A stretch of 64,000 nt of DNA from NCBI GenBank assembly GCA_963718725.1, contig OY970374.1:2259215-2323214 (forward strand). The letters run 5' to 3'. Every line of letters begins with the position of its first letter. The first letter of the stretch is position 1. Shown piece after piece: positions 1 to 54,210 of the stretch. The notes under the pieces are model-generated. The model searched no databases. It had not been told where the DNA came from and saw only the letters and a program-made list of their open reading frames with translations. Origin of the DNA: an uncultured Actinomycetota bacterium (GTDB lineage: Bacteria > Actinomycetota > Actinomycetes > Propionibacteriales > Nocardioidaceae). A program made the translations under genes and the position numbers.

Positions 1-577
1 ACTCGCGGCCCAGCAGGTCGACCGCTCCCGCGATGGTCTCGGCGCCGATCGGCGCGGCCGCTCCCCCGGTGGTGCCCGTCAACGAGACGAGGTGTTCACG
101 CAGCCTCGTCGCCACCCGGCGGACCTCGTCGGGCTGGCCGCTCCACGCATCGGTGAGCGCGGCGAGGACCTGGCGGAAGCTCGGCTGCCCGTGCCGCGGC
201 TGGTCGGGGAAGTACGTGCCCGCGAAGAACGGGTTGCCGTCGTGGTCGAGGACGACGGTCATCGGCCAGCCGCCATGGCCGGTCATCGCCGTCGTGGCGT
301 TCATGTAGATGGCGTCGACGTCCGGCCGCTCCTCGCGGTCGACCTTGATGCTCACGAAGTGCTCGTTGAGGTAGGCCGCCGTGGTGTCGTCCTCGAAGGA
401 CTCGTGCGCCATGACGTGGCACCAGTGGCACGCGGCGTACCCGACGCTGAGCAGCACCGGCAGGTTCCGGCGGCGGGCCTCGGCGAACGCGTCGTCGCCC
501 CACTCCCACCAGTCGACCGGGTTGTCGGCGTGCTGGAGCAGGTACGGCGACGTGGCGTCGGCCAAGCGGTTCGGCAT
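1..577 (-). CDS. Thioredoxin-domain protein (DUF255/YyaL-like), N-terminal part; the 3' end lies outside the window
   Basis: My own minus-strand translation from the ATG at 575-577 (GGGAGGA RBS upstream) gives [64 protein letters not shown]... GC3 is high. It is not in the ORF track because it is open at the window edge. Confidence 0.8.
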
Positions 578-593
578 GCGGTCCTCCCAGCTC

Positions 594-1853
594 TCACCGT
601 AGCGATCGTTCCTCCGTGAGGAGCGGCCGCGACGGAGCCCCGGCCGCCAGCAGCACGGCACCAAGTCCGGCCAGGACGGCGAGGACGAGGAACGCGCGCG
701 CGTAGGACCCGGTCGTCGTGGCCAGCAGGGCGCCGGCGAACGGTGCGAGGGCCGAGGCGGCGAGCGCGGGAGCGGTCAGCACGCCGTTGAGCCGGCCGTA
801 GGACGCGGGTCCCCACCGGTCCGTGACCGCGGTCGCCTGCACCAGCGTGTAGAGGCCGCGTGCGAGGCCCAGCAGCATCCCCAGCCCGATCACCACGCCC
901 GTGACCGGCGGCGCGAGGGCGAAGCCCGCCGTGAACGCCGCGACCGCGCCCACGACGAGCACCCCGCGCAGCGTGACTCCTGTCGCCGCGGCGAACCGCG
1001 CGTAGCCGACCCGGCCGAGCACCTGCCCGACGCCGCCGAGACCGAGCACGACGGCCGCGGTACGCGTGTCCATGCCCTGCTCACGGAGCATCGGAACGAG
1101 GTTCACCACGACGGCGAACACGGACAGCGCGACGAGGGTGTTGGCCGCGGCGAGCATCACGAAGGGCCGCGAGGCCGTCACCCGCCCCCGCGGCACCCCC
1201 GGCCCGACGCCGTCGCTGCCGGCTCCCTCGAGCCGTGACCACGGCCGGCGGAGACCACGCCAGTGCAGCGGCACGGTCACGACGGCGGCCACGACCAGCA
1301 GCACGACGTACGCCGTGCGCCAGCCCCAGGCGGCGTCGACGGTCGCGGCGAGCGGGGCGAACACCGTGCTGGCGAGCCCGCCGGCGAGCGTGACCGTCGT
1401 CAGCGCCCGCACCCGGCGCTCACCTCCCCAGCGGGTCAGCGCCGCGAACGCGGGCGGGTACAGCGTCCCGGCCATCGCGGCACCGACCAGCACCCAGCCG
1501 ACGTAGAAGACGAGGAGGGACGGCGCCGCGGCAACCGTCAGCATCCCCGGCACCGCGATCAGCGACCCAGCCGTCATCACCGCCCGCGGGCCGTAGGCGT
1601 CCAGGTGCCGACCGACCCAGAGCCCCACCAGGGCGCTGACGAGCTGGGCGACCGAGAAGGCGCCGGTGACGGCCGTCGCGGACCACCCCGTGTCGGCGGT
1701 GATGGACGACTGGAGCGCGGCGAAGCCGTAGTAGAGGCAGCCCCACGACACGATCTGGCTGATGCCGAGGACGGTGACGACCTGCCGCAGGGCCGGGGCG
1801 TCGAGCGCCGCGGGTACGTCGACCGCACCCGTGGGGCCGCCGGCGCGCGTCAC
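594..1853 (-). CDS. MFS transporter
   Basis: ORF track, 419 aa. The protein is multi-TM and hydrophobic throughout ([33 protein letters not shown] loop motif). The GTG start overlaps the upstream stop (GTGA at 1850-1853). Confidence 0.8.
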
Positions 1854-3205
1854 TCCGGCGCGCGACCCACGGTGAGGAGCTCGGGCTCCCGCGCCGACGA
1901 CCCGCAGCAGCCGCCGGACGTGTCACCCGCGACGGCGGCGGGTGCGTCGAACGCGCCGGCTCCGTTGCACACCCCGGACTCGGGCAGTACGAGGTCGACC
2001 CGGTCGGCGGCCTCCAGGTCACCGTCGAGCGCGGCCACGACGGAGCGGACCTGCTCGAAGCCGGTCATGGCGAGGAAGGACGGTGCCCGGCCGTAGGACT
2101 TCATCCCGGCGAGGTACAAGCCGGGCTCGGGCTGCACCAGCTCGCGGTGCCCGTGGGGGGCCACGTCGCCGCAGCTGTGGTGGTCCGGGTGGATCTGGTC
2201 GGCGAGCACCCGTGGCGACCCGAGGGCCGGGTCGAGGTCCAGCCGGACCTCCGACAGGAACCGGAGGTCGGGCCGGAACCCGGTCACGACCACGACCTCG
2301 TCGACGTCGCGGACCTCCTGACCGGCCATCGACACGACCGTCACGCGCCCGTCGGGCTGCGGCCGGACCTGGCCCGAGCGGAAGCCCGTCACCGTGGTGA
2401 CCACGCCACCCTCGGCTGCGTCGCGCGCGGCCTGCCCGAGCCGCCCACGCTCGACGAGCTGGTCGTTGTCGCCGCCACCGAACGCGTCACCCACGGCCGG
2501 GCGCCGCAGCACCCACGTGACCCGGGTCCCCGGTCGCTCGGCCGCGAGCTCGGTCAGACCGACCAGCACCCCCTGCGCCGAGGCACCCTTGCCGGCGAGG
2601 AGGACGTGCTTCCCGGCGTACCGCGCCGCGACGTCGGGGTCGGCGAGGTCCGGGATGCCGTAGGCGATCCGGTCGGCGTGCTCCCGCTCGCCGAGGGCGG
2701 GGTAGCCGTCGGCGCCGAGCGGGTTCGGCTGCCGCCACGTGCCCGAGGCGTCGATGACGGCGCGCGCCACCAGCCGCTCCGCGCCCTTCTCCGTGACGAC
2801 GTGGATGGCGAACGGGTCGTCCTCGCGGCCGAGGTCGACCAGCAGGTCGCGGCTGGCGCGCCCCACACCCACGACCTCGGCGCCGTACCGGAGGCTCCCG
2901 TGGGGGTGGGCGGCGAGCAGGTCGGCGAGCGGCTGGAGGTACTGCTCACGCCACTCGCCGCCGGTCGGGTACGCGTCCTCGTCGGGCGCGCGCCAGGTCC
3001 CCGCCGCGTCGAGCAGCCGCCGGGCCGCCGGGTCGACCAGCTCGCGCCACGCGGAGAACAGCCGGACATGGGCCCACTCGCCGACGGCGGCGCCGGCCAC
3101 CGGGCCGGACTCGAGGACCACGAAGTCCAGCCGGCGCTCGGCGGCGTGAGCTGCGGCGGCGAGTCCGATGGGACCGGCGCCGATGATGGCCACGGGATGG
3201 TTCAC
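1850..3205 (-). CDS. FAD/NAD(P)-binding flavoprotein (CzcO/ArsO-like class, from recollection) with a Cys-rich C-terminal tail
   Basis: ORF 1850..3334 is trimmed to the GTG at 3203-3205 (GGAG RBS just upstream), so the protein starts VNHPVAIIGAGPIGLAAA (GxGxxG). A second dinucleotide site is LLAGKGASAQG. The tail reads GVCNG...GGCCGSS. Confidence 0.75.
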   Translation of the reverse strand: MNHPVAIIGAGPIGLAAAAHAAERRLDFVVLESGPVAGAAVGEWAHVRLFSAWRELVDPAARRLLDAAGTWRAPDEDAYPTGGEWREQYLQPLADLLAAHPHGSLRYGAEVVGVGRASRDLLVDLGREDDPFAIHVVTEKGAERLVARAVIDASGTWRQPNPLGADGYPALGEREHADRIAYGIPDLADPDVAARYAGKHVLLAGKGASAQGVLVGLTELAAERPGTRVTWVLRRPAVGDAFGGGDNDQLVERGRLGQAARDAAEGGVVTTVTGFRSGQVRPQPDGRVTVVSMAGQEVRDVDEVVVVTGFRPDLRFLSEVRLDLDPALGSPRVLADQIHPDHHSCGDVAPHGHRELVQPEPGLYLAGMKSYGRAPSFLAMTGFEQVRSVVAALDGDLEAADRVDLVLPESGVCNGAGAFDAPAAVAGDTSGGCCGSSAREPELLTVGRAPE

Positions 3206-3225
3206 GAGGATCTCCGTCCACTTTG

Positions 3226-3273
3226 ATCGACGTCGGTCGATGTAGATAGGGAACTGTATCGAGGAAGATCGAT
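3226..3273. promoter_or_regulatory. Two inverted repeats in an AT-rich divergent promoter region (candidate ArsR-type operators)
   Basis: ATCGAC-gtcg-GTCGAT lies at 3226-3241 and ATCGA-ggaaga-TCGAT at 3258-3273. Both sit in the 91-bp spacer between the flavoprotein GTG (3205) and the ArsR-GNAT ATG (3297). This is the most AT-rich stretch nearby. Confidence 0.4.
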
Positions 3274-3296
3274 GAAGACAAGGTAGACTTCGGGAC

Positions 3297-4193
3297 ATGC
3301 CCGCCACCCAGACCGCCCCGGTCCCCGCCGCCACCCGGTCGACGCTGCCGCTGATCCAGCCCGACCCCGGATCGAGCGCACTGTCGAAGGAGCAGGCCGA
3401 GGACTACGCCGAGTGGTTCGCGGTGCTGTCCGACCCGACCCGGGTGCGGCTGCTGCACGTGCTGTCGACGTCGACGTCGGGGGCCCTGAAGGTCGGTGCC
3501 CTCGCGCAGCGGCTCGGCATCAGCCAGTCGACCTGCTCCCACCACGTCGAGCTGCTCCGCAAGGTCGGCTTCGTCGTCGTCGACAAGATCGGCAACGCGT
3601 CGATGGTGTCGGTCAACGCGGCCTGCTGCACCGGCCTGCCGCACGCCGCCGACGTCATCATGGGCACCCTGGCGTCGCAACCGTGCTGCCCGACCGACCT
3701 GCCTACCGACGTCACGGTCCGCCCGGTCACCGACGGTGACCTCGATCAGGTGCTGGCGATCTACGCCGAGGGCATCGCCACCCGCAACGCCACGTTCGAG
3801 ACAAAGGTCCCGGGTGCGGAGCAGCTGCAGGCCCGCTGGCTGTCCGACCTCGCCTGGGTCGCTGTCCTCGACGACGAGGTGGTCGGGTGGACCGCAGTGA
3901 TGCCGACGTCCGGCCGGGATTGCTACGCCGGCGTCGGCGAGACCGCGGTCTACGTCGCCGAGTCCGCCCGGGGACGCGGGGTCGGGAAGGCGCTGCTCCA
4001 CACCCAGGTCAACGCGGCCGACGCCGCCGGGCTGTGGACCCTGCAGACCTCGATCTTCCCCGAGAACCGGGCCAGCCTGGCTCTCCACCGCTCCGCCGGC
4101 TACCGGACCCTCGCGGTCCGGAGCAGGATCGCTCAGCTCGACGGCGTCTGGCGCGACACCGTGCTCATGGAACGGCGCAGCGACCGCACCTGA
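3297..4193 (+). CDS. Fusion protein: ArsR/SmtB-family wHTH regulator + PAT/YwnH-type (ArsN1-like) GNAT N-acetyltransferase
   Basis: ORF track, 298 aa. The wHTH region reads DPTRVRLLHVL...ISQSTCSHHVELLRKVGF. There are vicinal Cys pairs at C110-C111 and C130-C131. A complete GNAT follows (VRPVTDGDLDQVLAIYAEGIATRNATFE..., ESARGRGVGKALL, FPENRASLALHRSAGY). Confidence 0.8.
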   Translation: MPATQTAPVPAATRSTLPLIQPDPGSSALSKEQAEDYAEWFAVLSDPTRVRLLHVLSTSTSGALKVGALAQRLGISQSTCSHHVELLRKVGFVVVDKIGNASMVSVNAACCTGLPHAADVIMGTLASQPCCPTDLPTDVTVRPVTDGDLDQVLAIYAEGIATRNATFETKVPGAEQLQARWLSDLAWVAVLDDEVVGWTAVMPTSGRDCYAGVGETAVYVAESARGRGVGKALLHTQVNAADAAGLWTLQTSIFPENRASLALHRSAGYRTLAVRSRIAQLDGVWRDTVLMERRSDRT

Positions 4194-4451
4194 TCATCGG
4201 GCGAGCGCGACCGCGACCAGCACGAACGCGGCCACGGACGTCACGGTGCGCGCACGTTCCAGCGGACCCACCGCTCCTCGAACCGCGCCCGGGTCGCGCT
4301 CGGGTTGGTCGATCCCCTGGAACGCGCCCACCTACGACGCGTCGTCGCGGCGCGCCAGCCCCGGCATGGCGGTGTGGGCGAACGCGTAGAAGAACCCCGC
4401 GAGGAGTCCGGTCATGACCGTGGCAGCCGCCAGCACGACGGTGTCGGTCAC
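4194..4451 (-). pseudogene. Degraded DUF1772 (anthrone-oxygenase-like membrane protein) relic
   Basis: My own translation gives VTDTVVLAAATVMTGLLAGFFYAFAHTAMPGLARRDDAS*VGAFQGID... There is an in-frame TAG at 4332-4334 where the family has Tyr/Phe. The family C-terminal motif RFEERWVRWNV appears only in the +1 frame, followed in frame 0 by RTVTSVAAFVLVAVALAR. The relic is about 86 codons, against about 150 for intact members. Confidence 0.45.
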
Positions 4452-4846
4452 GGCCTCGGCCAGGTCGTCGCGTGACGCTCGAAGTGCTCGCCGGTCTGCA
4501 CGGGGACGACGCAGAACACCATCCCGCCCGGGTCGGTCAGGATCGTGTAGCCCTCCCGCTCCTCGAGCACGGTCGCGCCGAGGTCGGCCACGCGGGCCAC
4601 CTCCGCCGCGACGTCGTCGGTCTCGAGGTCGAGGTGGACCCGGGCCGGTGTCCCGGCCCCGGTGCGCTGGAGCTCGAGCAGCTCACCACCACCGAGCGGG
4701 GCGAGCGACTCGTAGGGGTCCTCCCCCGGCGGCCCTTCGGCGCTGTCCCGCTCGGAGCCGGTGACCCCGGCCCAGAAGGCTGCGGCGGCGTCGTAGGACT
4801 CCGCGGGGTGATCGATGAGGAACACGCCGATCCGGCTGCGGTGCAT
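4448..4846 (-). CDS. VOC (glyoxalase/bleomycin-resistance/dioxygenase) family protein
   Basis: This is the C-terminal 132 aa of ORF 4448..5629, starting at the ATG at 4844-4846: MHRSRIGVFLIDHPAESYDAAAAFWAGVTG...HLDLETDDVAAEVARVADLGATVLEE...DPGGMVFCVV. The upstream part of the ORF is low-complexity shadow frame. Confidence 0.75.
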   Translation of the reverse strand: MHRSRIGVFLIDHPAESYDAAAAFWAGVTGSERDSAEGPPGEDPYESLAPLGGGELLELQRTGAGTPARVHLDLETDDVAAEVARVADLGATVLEEREGYTILTDPGGMVFCVVPVQTGEHFERHATTWPRP

Positions 4847-4909
4847 GCCGGGAGCGTACGACGAGCCGGGGACGTGGAGCAGCCGGTCGAGCGGTGCTTG
4901 AATCGGGTC

Positions 4910-5527
4910 ATGGACTCCGAGGCCTGGGACGAGCGGTACGCCGCGACCGAGCTGGTGTGGTCGGCGGAGCCGAACCAGTTCGTGGCGGCCGAGTGCGCCG
5001 ATCTCACGCCCGGACGCGCGGTCGACCTCGCCGCGGGTGAGGGCCGCAACGCGATCTGGTTGGCAGGGCGGGGCTGGGAGGTGACCGCGGTCGACTTCTC
5101 GCAGGTCGCGCTCGACAAGGGCCGACGGCTCGCCGCTGCGACCGCGCCCACCGGGTCGCTCGAGTGGGTGTGCGCGGACGCGACGACGTGGACCGGATCG
5201 GGCCACGACCTGGCCGTCGTCGCCTACCTGCAGCTGCCGGCGGAGGAACGGCGGGCGGCCGCCCGTCGCGCGGTCGAGGCGCTCGCGCTCGGCGGGACCC
5301 TCCTGTGGGTGGCGCACGACTCGAGCAACCTCACGGAGGGCACCGGTGGCCCGCAGGACCCGGGCGTGCTGATGACGGCGGTCGACGTGGTCGCCGACGT
5401 CGAGGACCTCGGGGTCGAGGTGCAGCGTGCGGAGCGCGTGGCACGCGTCGTACCACCGTCCGGCGAGCACCGCGGCGAGCCCGACCGCACCGCGTGGGAC
5501 TGCCTCGTCCGGCTGGTCCGCACCTGA
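4910..5527 (+). CDS. Class I SAM-dependent methyltransferase (TehB-like)
   Basis: ORF 4472..5527 is trimmed to the ATG at 4910: MDSEAWDERYAATELVWSAEPNQFV...AVDLAAGEGRNAIWLAGRGWEVTAVDFS (SAM motif I). Confidence 0.8.
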   Translation: MDSEAWDERYAATELVWSAEPNQFVAAECADLTPGRAVDLAAGEGRNAIWLAGRGWEVTAVDFSQVALDKGRRLAAATAPTGSLEWVCADATTWTGSGHDLAVVAYLQLPAEERRAAARRAVEALALGGTLLWVAHDSSNLTEGTGGPQDPGVLMTAVDVVADVEDLGVEVQRAERVARVVPPSGEHRGEPDRTAWDCLVRLVRT

Positions 5528-6692: not shown

Positions 6693-7577
6693 TCAGGTCG
6701 GGGTCGGGATGCCCGCGAAGAGGTCGTCCTCGGGGGTGGGCGCATCGACGTGCGAGACCACGAGCTCGAAGTCCTCCGTCGGCCAGATCTTCTCCTGGAG
6801 CTCACGCGGGATCGCGAACCACGGGCCGTCGGGATCGATCTGGGTCGCGTGCGCCAGCAGCGCCTGGTCGCGCACGCCGAAGTAGTCGCCGCACGGGACC
6901 CGGGTGGTGATGCGGGCGTCCCACTCAGGCTCGGGCTTCCACTCCTCCAGGCGCTCGCCCCAGGGGGACTCGAGCCCGTGCTCCAGCATCGCGTCGTGGA
7001 GCGCCTGCATCCGCGGCCGGTTGAAGGAGTGGTGGTAGTAGAGCTTCAGCGGCTGCCACGGCTCCCCCGCGTCGGGGTAGCGCTCGGGGTCTCCCGCCGC
7101 CTCGAACGCCGCCACCGAGAGCTCGTGGCAGGCGATGTGGTCGGGGTGCGGATAGCCACCGCGCTCGTCGTACGTCGTGACGACGTGGGGCTTGAAGTCG
7201 CGGATCAGCCGCACCAGCCGCTCGGCGGCCTCCTCCACGGGCACGAGGGCGAAGCAGCCCTCGGGCAGCGGGGGCTTGGGGTCGCCCTCGGGCCAGCCGG
7301 AGTCGACGAAGCCGAGCCAGTCCTGCCGCACCCCCAGGATGTCGCGGGCTCGCTCCATCTCCTGGCGACGTACCTCGGAGATGTTCGCGAGGATGTCGGG
7401 GCGGTCCATCTTGGGGTTGAGGATCGAGCCGCGCTCGCCGCCGGTGCAGGTGGCGACGTGGACGTCGACCCCCTCCGCGACGTAGCGGGCGGTCGTGGCC
7501 GCGCCCTTGCTCGACTCGTCGTCGGGGTGGGCGTGCACGTGCATCAGCCGGAAGCCGGTCCGGGGGCGCTGCTCCAT
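6693..7577 (-). CDS. mca: Mycothiol S-conjugate amidase (LmbE/MshB-Mca family)
   Basis: ORF track, 294 aa. Motifs are [20 protein letters not shown] and HATQ. The conserved actinobacterial neighbourhood mca-DUF4307-greA is present. Confidence 0.85.
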
Positions 7578-48599: not shown

Positions 48600-49643
<1,044 letters not shown>

Positions 49644-49684: not shown

Positions 49685-50080
49685 TCAGGCGAGCAGGTCG
49701 GCGAGCAGCCGCTCGATCCGCGCGCGGATCTCGTCGCGGATCGGGCGGACCGCGTCGATGTCCTGGCCGGCGGGGTCGTCGAGGACCCAGTCCTCGTAGC
49801 GCTTGCCGGGGAAGTACGGGCACTCGTCGCCGCAGCCCATGGTGACGACCACGTCGGACTCCTGCACCGCCTCGGCGGTCAACACCTTCGGATGATGGGT
49901 CCCGATGTCGATCCCGACCTCGGCCATGGCCGCGACGGCGACCGGGTTGATCGTGGACGCCGGCGCCGACCCGGCGGACAGCACCTCGACCCGGTCGCCG
50001 GCGAGGTGCCGGAGCCAACCGGCGGCCATCTGGGACCGACCGGCGTTGTGGACACAGACGAAGAGGACGGTGGGCGTCAT
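49685..50080 (-). CDS. arsC: Arsenate reductase, LMW-PTPase type
   Basis: ORF track, 131 aa. The P-loop is VLFVCVHNAGRSQMA (CX5R). The second Cys cluster is MGCGDECP. There is an ATGA overlap with the MIP gene. Confidence 0.85.
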   Translation of the reverse strand: MTPTVLFVCVHNAGRSQMAAGWLRHLAGDRVEVLSAGSAPASTINPVAVAAMAEVGIDIGTHHPKVLTAEAVQESDVVVTMGCGDECPYFPGKRYEDWVLDDPAGQDIDAVRPIRDEIRARIERLLADLLA

Positions 50081-50748
50081 GACGGGACCTCTGGGGTCGG
50101 GAACAGGAACCGGACCAGCCCGACGGCGACCGCGCCGCCGGCGAGCTGCATCAGCACGAACATCGGGGCCGCCGACGGCGCGATCCCCGCGAACGTGTCG
50201 GAGAGCGTGCGCGCGACCGTGACGGCCGGGTTGGCGAAGCTCGTCGAGCTGGTGAACCAGTAGGCCGCGGCGATGTAGCCGCCGACCGCGAGCGCGACGG
50301 TCTCAGGGCGGTCCGAGCGCAGCGACCCGAAGACCACGACCACGAGGCCGAGCGTCGCGACCGCCTCGGCCAGCCAGAGCCCGCCGCCCGTGCGCTCGGT
50401 GGTGGCCAGGGTCACCGCGTCCAGCCCGAACATCAGGTTCGCGAGCACCGCGCCGGCCACGCCGCCGACGAGCTGGGCCGCGACGAGGGCCGCCGCCTCG
50501 CGGGCCGGAACGAGCCGGAGCGCGGCCTCGACCAGGGTGACGACCGGGTTGAACGACGCCGACACGGGTCGCAGTGCCAGGATCAGGGCGACCAGCGCGG
50601 CACCGGTGGCGACGCTGTTCTGCAACAGCTGGAGTCCGACATCTCCCGGGGAGAGCCGGGCGGCCATGATGCCCGAGCCGATGACGGCCGCCACGAGGAA
50701 CGCGGTGCCGAGGGCCTCGGCCGCGGCCCGGCGTACGACTGCGGTCAC
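50077..50748 (-). CDS. MIP-family channel (aquaglyceroporin, AqpS/GlpF-like)
   Basis: ORF 50077..51060 is trimmed to the GTG at 50748 (GTGA overlap with arsR). It has two NPx boxes (SFNPVVT, FANPAVT) and six hydrophobic segments. Confidence 0.8.
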   Translation of the reverse strand: MTAVVRRAAAEALGTAFLVAAVIGSGIMAARLSPGDVGLQLLQNSVATGAALVALILALRPVSASFNPVVTLVEAALRLVPAREAAALVAAQLVGGVAGAVLANLMFGLDAVTLATTERTGGGLWLAEAVATLGLVVVVFGSLRSDRPETVALAVGGYIAAAYWFTSSTSFANPAVTVARTLSDTFAGIAPSAAPMFVLMQLAGGAVAVGLVRFLFPTPEVPS

Positions 50749-51101
50749 CGGCCGGCGCTCGCGACGAGGGCGCCGAGGTCGGCCAGCACCTGGTCCTGGA
50801 CCCGGTAGAACACCCACACGCCACGCTTCTCGCGGTGCAGCAGCCCGGCCTCGTGCAGCACCTTGAGGTGGTGGCTGACCGTCGGCTGCGAGAGGTCGAG
50901 CGCGTGGTTGAGGTCGCACACGCACGCCTCGCCGCCCTCGTGGGAGGCGACCAGCGACAGCAGCCGGAGCCGCGCCGGATCGGCGAGGGCCTTGAGCATC
51001 GGCACCACCCCCGCCGCCGCGAGCGCGGACAGCGGCTCGCCTCGCAGCGGGGTGCAGCACGCGACCGCGTCGATCGGCGCCAGCATCGCGGACTTCGACA
51101 T
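50745..51101 (-). CDS. arsR: ArsR-family arsenic-responsive repressor
   Basis: This is the C-terminal 118 aa of ORF 50745..51851, from the ATG at 51101. It has C15-C16 (AVACCTP), the EACVCDL motif, and QPTVSHHLKVLHEAGL. Confidence 0.85.
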   Translation of the reverse strand: MSKSAMLAPIDAVACCTPLRGEPLSALAAAGVVPMLKALADPARLRLLSLVASHEGGEACVCDLNHALDLSQPTVSHHLKVLHEAGLLHREKRGVWVFYRVQDQVLADLGALVASAGR

Positions 51102-53847: not shown

Positions 53848-54210
53848 ATGTCCGACCCGCTCTCCCGCGTCTTCGCCGCCCTCGCCGACCCGACCCGGCG
53901 CGACATCGTCGCCCGGCTCACCGAGCAGGACGCGACCGTGGGTGAGATCGCGGCGCCGTACGACGTGAGCCTCCAGGCCGTCTCCAAGCACCTCAAGGTG
54001 CTGGAGGAGGCCGGCCTCGTCACCCGGAGCCGCGATGCCCAGCGCCGGCCGGTGCACCTCGAAGCGGAGGTGTTCGACCTGATGACGAAGTGGATCGAGC
54101 GCTACCGCCGGCAGGCGGAGGAGCGCTACCGACGCCTGGACGCCGTCCTGGCCGAGCTGGACGACAACGAGAACGAGCACGACCGACCCCAGGAGGGAAC
54201 CGCATCATGA
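53848..54210 (+). CDS. ArsR/SmtB-family transcriptional regulator (non-metal type, SRPBCC-paired)
   Basis: ORF track, 120 aa. Motifs are FAALADPTRRDIVARL and SLQAVSKHLKVLEEAGLV. It has no Cys. Confidence 0.8.
   Translation: MSDPLSRVFAALADPTRRDIVARLTEQDATVGEIAAPYDVSLQAVSKHLKVLEEAGLVTRSRDAQRRPVHLEAEVFDLMTKWIERYRRQAEERYRRLDAVLAELDDNENEHDRPQEGTAS

Follow-up and report, generated by a model that had tools for sequence, protein, structure and literature searches.

Antibiotics that contain arsenic, such as methylarsenite (MAs(III)) and arsinothricin (AST), are the subject of active research, as is resistance to them. As(III)-binding ArsR repressors of the Acidithiobacillus ferrooxidans type use a C-terminal C95/C96/C102 cluster and those of the Corynebacterium type an N-terminal CC together with C55, and in ArsR/SmtB dimers such as SmtB and CzrA the α5 helices pack antiparallel, with the α5 metal sites at the dimer interface. 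ArsK is a major facilitator superfamily (MFS) transporter that exports As(III), Sb(III), trivalent roxarsone (Rox(III)) and MAs(III), and MerA carries a flexible C-terminal tail with vicinal cysteines on a two-Rossmann flavoprotein. A preprint cites ArsV as a flavin monooxygenase that oxidizes MAs(III), Rox(III) and Sb(III), and reports As(III)/Sb(III)-responsive MarR_ars repressors encoded upstream of arsV or arsN (bioRxiv 10.1101/2021.08.12.456183); the acetyltransferase PpArsN1 contacts AST or phosphinothricin (PPT) through Arg75, Arg77 and Tyr80 (PMC6465285); and an ArsR-methyltransferase of Brevundimonas, ‘ArsRM’, has been reported to bind its own promoter (PMC10190100). Here we compare these systems with a block at positions 594-4193 of a 64,000-nt window, the whole stretch of contig OY970374.1 that was analyzed, from an uncultured bacterium of the Nocardioidaceae (assembly GCA_963718725.1), in which an ArsR domain fused to an ArsN1-like acetyltransferase is encoded divergently from a cysteine-tailed flavoprotein and a distant relative of ArsK. 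We put the probability at roughly 60% that the block works as a metalloid-responsive divergon and represents, in fused form, an accessory module that recurs in arsenic resistance; most likely it would be derepressed by metalloids and act against organoarsenicals. This reading is built on gene structure, domain families, synteny, conserved cysteines, a conserved candidate operator and ars genes physically linked to such modules, from which we infer the mechanism set out below. A preliminary description of this DNA had already proposed a metalloid/organoarsenical module, an interpretation that the comparative evidence supports.

The closest relatives of the window are Nocardioides and uncultured Actinomycetota metagenome-assembled genomes (MAGs), and the block itself is compact. 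On the plus strand the open reading frame (ORF) at 3297-4193 encodes the 298-aa fusion, for which Pfam and NCBIfam agree with the preliminary description that an ArsR/SmtB winged helix-turn-helix (wHTH) is joined to a complete GNAT domain. Across a 91-bp divergent regulatory spacer (3206-3296), the minus-strand ORF at 1850-3205 encodes a 451-aa FAD/NAD(P)-binding two-Rossmann flavoprotein, which starts at a GTG codon at 3205 with GGAG 7 nt upstream. Its stop codon overlaps the start of the MFS transporter gene (594-1853, minus strand, 419 aa) as GTGA, an overlap that could be read directly as previously described and by which the two genes are translationally coupled.

Within the fusion protein the wHTH spans residues ~38-110, helix α5 residues ~114-126 and the GNAT domain residues ~138-294. 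Pfam matches are HTH_20 (45 bits), HTH_5 (38 bits) and Acetyltransf_1/3/4, and the NCBIfam metalloregulator model HTH_metalloreg (NF033788) scores 60.8 bits, above its cut-off of 55. A database search returned 4731 homologues at E ≤ 1e-5; the best 120 of these are all ~270-333 aa long and combine an HTH with a GNAT domain in Pfam, most of the named members are Nocardioides, and database labels call the fusions ‘helix-turn-helix domain-containing GNAT family N-acetyltransferase’ or ‘ArsR/YncA’. We found the fusion in 31 species-representative genomes of Nocardioidaceae, Nocardiopsis and Pseudonocardiales (hereafter the 31 species loci) and on ~30 plasmids of Rhodococcus, Nocardia and Pseudonocardia. 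The unit is not as unusual as the preliminary description implied: its gene set is common in unfused form, and the fusion itself has thousands of database homologues. Our literature search found no description of an ArsR-ArsN fusion; a precedent for an ArsR-enzyme fusion is ArsRM (PMC10190100), which likewise joins an ArsR DNA-binding domain covalently to an arsenic-modifying enzyme, whereas the fusion described here has a GNAT instead of an S-adenosylmethionine (SAM) methyltransferase, another cysteine architecture and another operator. Searches with the ArsR half alone matched a subfamily of standalone regulators of ~115-135 aa (our entries P0323-P0347), with which it shares the signature YAxWFxxLxDPTR...GQSTVSHH...VGFV...N..C..FPxAAxxVMG; it is only ~32-34% identical to the ArsRs that adjoin unfused GNAT genes, and its cysteine architecture is its own. 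Judging from gene arrangements, the fusion likely arose when neighboring arsR and GNAT genes, which sometimes overlap, were joined; in Herbiconiux, for example, the flavoprotein gene is divergent from an ArsR-GNAT pair that overlaps by 4 nt.

The fusion contains six cysteines (C80, C110, C111, C130, C131 and C209), four of which form the two vicinal pairs that the preliminary description had correctly placed between the domains. C110-C111 (3624-3629, plus strand) lie in the motif ACCTGLPHAAD just N-terminal of helix α5, and C130-C131 (3684-3689, plus strand) lie in a PCCP motif just C-terminal of it, in the linker to the GNAT. All four residues are invariant, within invariant motifs, in 25 aligned homologues of 73-91% identity. 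Conservation of the pairs in orthologues, on which the earlier proposal had been staked, is high: both occur at fixed spacing in 119 of the best 120 of the 4731 homologues and in 26 of the 31 species loci, with pair 1 retained in 30/31. The five loci that lack pair 2 or both pairs are L021, L026, L027, L028 and L030 in our numbering, and four of these also lack the flavoprotein neighbor. Put the other way, both pairs are kept in 24 of the 25 loci with a divergent flavoprotein gene, and pair 2 or both have been lost in four of the six loci without one (24/1 vs 2/4, Fisher p = 0.002, uncorrected for phylogeny), perhaps in two or three independent events. Since the standalone relatives of the ArsR domain have a single cysteine at the pair-1 position and no PCCP, the double-pair architecture is a derived trait of the fusion clade, to which the CC-x18-CC arrangement is essentially confined; the few short proteins with CC...CC resemble truncated or frameshifted fusions. 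A conserved cysteine cluster that could supply S3 coordination, formed by C110/C111 and C130/C131 on either side of α5, is present in the protein, and since the pairs flank α5 and α5 helices pack antiparallel in this family, C110/C111 should approach C130′/C131′ of the other subunit. The fusion shares with the Acidithiobacillus and Corynebacterium types a wHTH with vicinal cysteines outside the α3 CVCD site and around the α5 dimer interface, and differs from them in having two pairs flanking α5 as CC-x18-CC, with neither a CVCD motif nor an N-terminal CC. A structure-based placement of the pairs was dropped because the AlphaFold2 (AF2) model of the fusion is too poor (predicted local distance difference test, pLDDT, 62.7; linker below 50), although its secondary structure does give α5 at 114-126.

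The GNAT half (3708-4178, plus strand) is most similar to ArsN1 of family A. In a ranking by NCBIfam hidden Markov models (HMMs) it scores 143.6 bits with ArsN1a (NF040503), 64.3 with ArsN1b and 44.6 with phosphinothricin acetyltransferase (PAT). With the same ArsN1a model the PGAP-named ArsN1a of Bacillus cereus scores 233, unfused GNATs of actinobacterial ars islands 113-138 and the Rhodococcus fusion 140.5, so that the scores of 113-143 for the window, Rhodococcus and unfused proteins describe an actinobacterial ArsN1a-like subclade just under the cut-off, with the window domain as its top scorer. Identity tells a similar story: unfused GNATs from actinobacterial ars islands (Rathayibacter, Herbiconiux and Streptomyces F12) share 49-53% with the domain and named ArsN1a proteins 30-38%; instead of grouping with housekeeping PAT enzymes, an outcome the preliminary description had named as fatal to its proposal, the domain has ArsN1a as its best family and these ars-island proteins as its closest unfused relatives. 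The RGRGVG acetyl-CoA motif and the glutamate of GE(T/S)xVYV (GETAVYV in the window) are invariant among the 25 aligned homologues, suggesting that the enzyme is functional. In the window the substrate loop is S-G-R-D-C-Y, in B. cereus ArsN1a S-H-R-C-A-Y and in PAT-like proteins R-P-R-x-x-Y; with the substrate-contacting residues of PpArsN1 it was compared at the motif level only. Set against the description of ArsN1 as a PAT-like GNAT of an ars operon (PMC6465285), the domain is PAT-like, while here there is no adjacent acr3 or arsC and its partners are ars-island genes. It resembles ArsN1 in its PAT-like GNAT fold and motifs, in the S-x-R-x-x-Y loop of PGAP-named ArsN1a and in its ars-linked relatives, and differs in its sub-cut-off score, its actinobacterial subclade and its covalent ArsR domain.

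The divergent spacer contains two operator-like palindromes of the form ATCGA-N6-TCGAT, ATCGACGTCGGTCGAT at 3226-3241 and ATCGAGGAAGATCGAT at 3258-3273. These are the only two matches to this pattern in the 64 kb, where 0.05 would be expected, and none of 100 shuffles gave two or more. The preliminary description was right about the spacer length and the two ATCGA-type repeats, while at 500-bp resolution an AT-rich composition does not stand out: the 500-bp bin that contains the spacer has a GC content of 0.708, within the ~0.70-0.77 seen elsewhere in the window. At least one strict copy occurs in 24 of the 25 orthologous spacers (those of the species loci with a divergent flavoprotein gene), and 23/25 have two or three copies; the half-sites are kept while the 6-nt centre varies freely. 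In the spacer of L003 a strict copy is accompanied by one that has a single mismatch, and two Rhodococcus plasmids have three copies each. The sole orthologous locus without palindromes is that of a Nocardioides MAG (L017, ~6880-7010), in which the flavoprotein and fusion frames seem to abut or overlap, suggesting a rearrangement or assembly problem. Spacers of unfused systems in Herbiconiux and Streptomyces contain degenerate versions, e.g., TTCGAC-N4-GTCGAT. The conserved palindromes are a phylogenetic footprint of the putative operator of a dimeric wHTH protein, which argues that the ArsR half is probably a working, autoregulatory repressor of the divergent promoter pair. A sigma-70 consensus scan of the spacer gave no match; a −10-like TAGACT 7 nt before the ATG could place operator 2 over the −35 region and make the transcript short or leaderless, and operator 1 would lie downstream of a −10-like TACAGT on the other strand.

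The flavoprotein matches Pyr_redox_3 in Pfam, and an identical 451-aa protein is present in a public collection. In every source checked the family is unnamed; public annotation says ‘FAD-dependent oxidoreductase’ only, and the name ArsV is on no member of its database cluster. The family is large and spans Actinomycetota, Pseudomonadota and Bacillota. Its hallmark is a conserved cysteine-rich tail: the window protein has only four cysteines, C345 in HSCG (2171-2173), C413 in GVC (1967-1969) and C433/C434 in GGCCG (1904-1909), all encoded on the minus strand, and the ORF map, Pfam match and cysteine positions bear out the two-Rossmann protein with GVC and GGCC tail motifs described earlier. 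The HSCG and LPxTGVC cysteines are invariant in an 11-sequence alignment across the three phyla, with the tail CC in 10 of the 11; five of six further members (Pseudomonas, Paenibacillus, Cytobacillus, Rathayibacter and Roseomonas) combine LP(E/Q)TGVC with one or more tail CC pairs, Cellulosimicrobium, the sixth, has LPATGVC with a tail CC, and the tail CC is found in 118 of the 120 closest homologues. The AF2 model (pLDDT 72.3) shows the tail (411-451), with C433/C434, as disordered. This agrees with the earlier comparison with the tail of MerA, a flexible CC tail suited to capturing a thiophilic substrate; an assignment as a MerA-like reductase was rejected because there is no redox-active CxxxxC among the four cysteines. 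The two proteins also differ in that the match to the MerA fold is generic (rank 27, template modeling (TM) score 0.28) and the context is one of arsenic and not mercury. With ArsV and ArsO the flavoprotein shares its character as an ars-island NAD(P)H/FAD two-Rossmann enzyme, often under an ArsR or MarR_ars regulator and beside an ArsK-like MFS and ArsN1, and it differs from ArsO in score (47 bits against a cut-off of 425) and in its conserved tail. A second, ArsO-like flavoprotein of 346-356 aa often accompanies the module in other genomes (L081:5730-6800, L083:11547-12587, L090:5879-6940, L085:8525-9595, L091:3103-4152 and L097:4666-5733) and is absent from the window block. Those of L081 and L083 score 243-264 bits with the ArsO model, below its cut-off of 425, and this companion is an alternative, equally possible candidate for the published ArsV.

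The MFS transporter, a Pfam MFS_1 protein, has ArsK (NF033733) as its best NCBIfam family and occupies the same position downstream of the flavoprotein gene as ArsK of Ensifer. It differs in score (164 against the 513 of PGAP-named Ensifer ArsK) and is 29.5% identical to that protein, and 51% identical to the partner MFS proteins of Rhodococcus and Streptomyces.

Linkage to arsenic genes emerges from other genomes. The fusion and flavoprotein genes are divergent neighbors in 25 of the 31 species loci, 19 of which also have the MFS gene, and genes for ACR3, ArsC, MIP or ArsO-like proteins lie within 7 kb of the fusion in 15/31. Among 17 annotated plasmid loci with a flavoprotein homologue, PGAP-named arsenic genes are present in 10 and an ArsN1-like GNAT is beside or near the flavoprotein in ~12. 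On plasmids, the set of regulator, flavoprotein, MFS and ArsN1-like GNAT recurs unfused beside acr3, arsB, arsC, arsH, arsDA or aioBA, and homologues of the flavoprotein-MFS pair adjoin arsRBOCT, aioBA, arsH, arsDA, acr3 and arsB. In Actinomycetota, the pair of Streptomyces FR-008 pSSFR1 (56% identity) is divergent from an ArsO-like-ArsR pair, immediately beside arsR-acr3-arsO and arsC-trxB, and in Streptomyces F12 the MFS and flavoprotein are divergent from ArsO-like, ArsR and GNAT genes 3 kb from arsO-acr3-arsR and arsC-trxB; the order in Arthrobacter is arsC, flavoprotein, trxB, arsC, ArsR, MIP, ArsR, GNAT, and in Cellulosimicrobium and Rathayibacter an ArsR is divergent from a translationally coupled flavoprotein-GNAT pair. 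Elsewhere we find aioBA ... GNAT, ArsR, flavoprotein, ArsK in Ensifer, an ArsR-flavoprotein-ArsK order that may correspond to the published ArsV locus; aioBA, arsH, arsC, aqp, arsC, ArsR, flavoprotein, MFS in Nitrobacter; and, in Pseudomonas nitroreducens, an MFS divergent from MarR, ArsN1a, flavoprotein, arsD, arsA ... arsC, arsR, arsC, acr3. B. cereus has ArsR, flavoprotein, small ORF, ArsO-like, ArsN1a; Priestia has ArsR, flavoprotein, small ORF, MFS, acr3, arsR, arsB, arsC; Paenibacillus has MFS, ArsO-like, MarR, flavoprotein, ArsN1a, trxB, arsR next to arsR-arsB-arsC; and Cytobacillus has the complete gene set as one operon (MarR, ArsO-like, flavoprotein, small ORF, MFS, ArsN1a).

The regulators of the unfused systems are of classical types. 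Those of Streptomyces, Herbiconiux, Arthrobacter, Cellulosimicrobium and Rathayibacter combine an N-terminal CC with CVCD, those of Ensifer and Nitrobacter have a C-terminal ECCAxxxC (CCx4C), and that of B. cereus has CVCD and LCC. Other loci have a MarR gene directly upstream of the flavoprotein gene or of an ArsN1a-flavoprotein pair (Paenibacillus, P. nitroreducens), and by analogy of gene order these plasmid loci match the reported MarR_ars-arsV/arsN arrangement. A feature of the Bacillota loci with no counterpart in the window is a conserved small ORF of ~67-70 aa, always after the flavoprotein gene and before the MFS or ArsO-like gene (L085:8295-8498, L093:6284-6490, L097:7293-7502 and L086:7269-7472).

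For the metalloid-responsive divergon we propose the following mechanism, in which repression and derepression are drawn from family knowledge and conservation, and acetylation, oxidation and efflux from homology and context. Dimerization of the fusion would involve its ArsR α5 helices and, as PAT/ArsN1 enzymes are dimeric, probably the GNAT domain as well; the dimer would bind both ATCGA-N6-TCGAT sites and repress the fusion gene along with the flavoprotein-MFS operon. Thiolates of C110/C111 and C130′/C131′ would capture a trivalent thiophilic metalloid, namely As(III), Sb(III) or MAs(III), across the dimer interface, releasing the DNA. The ArsN1a-like GNAT would then N-acetylate an amino-acid-type organoarsenical, e.g., AST; the cysteine-rich tail and HSCG/GVC thiols of the flavoprotein would take up antimonite or a trivalent (organo)arsenical for oxidation with NAD(P)H, FAD and O2 in the manner of ArsV and ArsH; and the ArsK-like MFS would export the substrate or product. 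A bolder version of this scheme, which we consider doubtful, is that CC-α5-CC might be an independently evolved ArsR metalloid site at a hinge, where a single binding event would both release the operator and switch the acetyltransferase; that the flavoprotein might found a new class of oxidoreductases that capture an organoarsenical or antimonite with the tail; and that its conserved pairing with ArsN1 in three phyla might reflect a shared substrate, e.g., trivalent AST precursors.

Several observations weigh against the arsenic divergon. No acr3, arsB or arsC lies within the block (594-4193), as already noted in the preliminary description, and the arsR-MIP-arsC operon in the window is at 49685-51098. 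That description had also proposed comparing each protein with arsenic-family models: ArsN1a and ArsK did come out as the best families, but both scores fall below the curated cut-offs (143.6 against 170 and 164.2 against 400), and identification of the flavoprotein as ArsO/CzcO (NF040505) was rejected at 47.2 bits against 425. Foldseek matches of the flavoprotein are generic (TrxR-like FNR, YpdA, TrxR, FMO and N-hydroxylase folds; TM 0.26-0.48) and cannot separate a monooxygenase from a TrxR-like reductase. With a poor AF2 model of the fusion, the inter-subunit cysteine site is a matter of geometric reasoning only, and the single cysteine of the standalone relatives makes the ancestral ligand or signal less certain. 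On the Rhodococcus plasmids pROB01 and pREL1 the fusion-flavoprotein-MFS trio lies among copper, cation diffusion facilitator (CDF) and P-type ATPase genes, and no PGAP-named arsenic gene is found in the 9-kb flanks of the Rhodococcus plasmid copies, which contain Cu, Cd and other metal genes. Flavoprotein homologues lie next to merR-merA in Staphylococcus arlettae and, under a PadR regulator, near chromate and nickel genes in Roseomonas, with no arsenic-specific genes in the stretches read. These contexts favor a module for another thiophilic stress, such as Hg(II), Cd(II), Cu(I), tellurite/selenite or thiol/persulfide, with the cysteine pairs acting as a redox switch or an S4 metal switch and the flavoprotein as a reductase with a MerA-like hand-off tail, as do the Foldseek matches to TrxR, YpdA and MerA-type disulfide reductases and the weak NCBIfam matches to CmtR and BigR. 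We nevertheless regard this as quite unlikely: most contexts are arsenic-specific, the flavoprotein core has neither a CxxC nor a CxxxxC redox-active pair among its four cysteines, the partner enzyme resembles ArsN1a, and classical As(III) motifs mark the regulators of unfused systems.

Two further possibilities concern the GNAT domain. It might be a general detoxifier of glutamine synthetase inhibitors (PPT or methionine sulfoximine) with no arsenic substrate, its ars linkage being hitch-hiking. Sequence matches in the PDB are indeed of the PAT type, the best at 59.8 bits compared with 37.6 for P. putida ArsN1 (5jtf/6m7g), PpArsN1 itself acetylates PPT as well (PMC6465285), and many relatives in Acidobacteriaceae have no ars neighbor. 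What makes this alternative improbable is the much higher score with the ArsN1a model than with PAT (143.6 vs 44.6), the repeated translational coupling of the GNAT to an ars-island flavoprotein or ArsR, and ten Pedobacter relatives (49-53% identity) encoded directly upstream of arsC-acr3. The domain could instead serve mainly as a ligand sensor, with binding of an amino-acid organoarsenical or acetyl-CoA controlling DNA binding and the cysteine pairs being structural or redox-modulatory. Such a role would account for the covalent fusion being retained in Nocardioidaceae, Nocardiaceae plasmids and Pseudonocardiales, it is sterically plausible given that both domains are dimeric, and it fits the position of pair 2 in the inter-domain linker; yet neither the catalytic nor the acetyl-CoA motifs vary, ordinary As(III)-type ArsRs occur in unfused arsR-GNAT pairs, and loss of the cysteine pairs tracks loss of the regulated flavoprotein, so that we hold this too to be very unlikely.

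The components of the metalloid-responsive divergon belong to or neighbor known kinds: ArsR, ArsN1, ArsK and ars-island flavin oxidoreductases. What appears to be new is the ArsR-ArsN1-like fusion with its CC-α5-CC arrangement, its precise candidate operator and the pairing of ArsN1 with this flavoprotein family across phyla. The four-part set of regulator, cysteine-tailed flavoprotein, ArsK-like MFS and ArsN1-like GNAT recurs as a unit in arsenic islands from three phyla (Actinomycetota, Pseudomonadota and Bacillota), and its fused form is a compact, directly testable sensor-enzyme that predicts a precise 16-bp operator. Among ArsR proteins, whose known As(III) sites are convergent, the fusion may represent a new cysteine architecture, and the proposed function would better annotate thousands of Nocardioides and Rhodococcus genes and offer a potential biosensor part.

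Neighboring genes in the window were also considered as module members. A DUF255/Thioredox_DsbH gene (1-577, minus strand, extending past the window start) lies beyond the MFS gene as described earlier (252 bits) and was rejected, being syntenic in the two closest genomes only. A glyoxalase-like ORF (Glyoxalase_6; 4448-4864, minus strand), which runs toward the 3′ end of the fusion gene from the opposite strand, was set aside for want of an arsenic-related family match. The next gene, for a TehB/TPMT-like SAM methyltransferase (4898-5527, plus strand), likewise has no arsenic-related family match and is probably outside the module because it is kept in L001, L002 and L012 only. Downstream follows a PIG-L/LmbE-family, Mca/MshB-like deacetylase gene (6693-7577, minus strand), and beyond it ORFs that read as greA- and ilvA-like from their translations only. 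The module is placed in a core region of the genome, one that the DUF255 and PIG-L/LmbE genes suggest is that of a mycothiol-using actinobacterium.

The canonical arsR-MIP-arsC operon (49685-51098, minus strand) lies 46 kb from the fusion module, and the 64-kb scan found no ATCGA-N6-TCGAT near it. Its ArsR (MSKSAMLAPIDAVACCTPL...GEACVCDL) has an N-terminal CC and CVCD, and it encodes a MIP/aquaporin channel and a thioredoxin-type ArsC 72% identical to that of Streptomyces FR-008. Immediately downstream of arsC on the same strand is an aldo-keto reductase gene (48600-49643, minus strand) that may share a transcript with the ars operon; its product belongs to the L-glyceraldehyde-3-phosphate reductase subfamily, scoring 476 bits against a cut-off of 448. 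A third ArsR/SdpR-type regulator, of 120 aa, is encoded at 53848-54210 on the plus strand.

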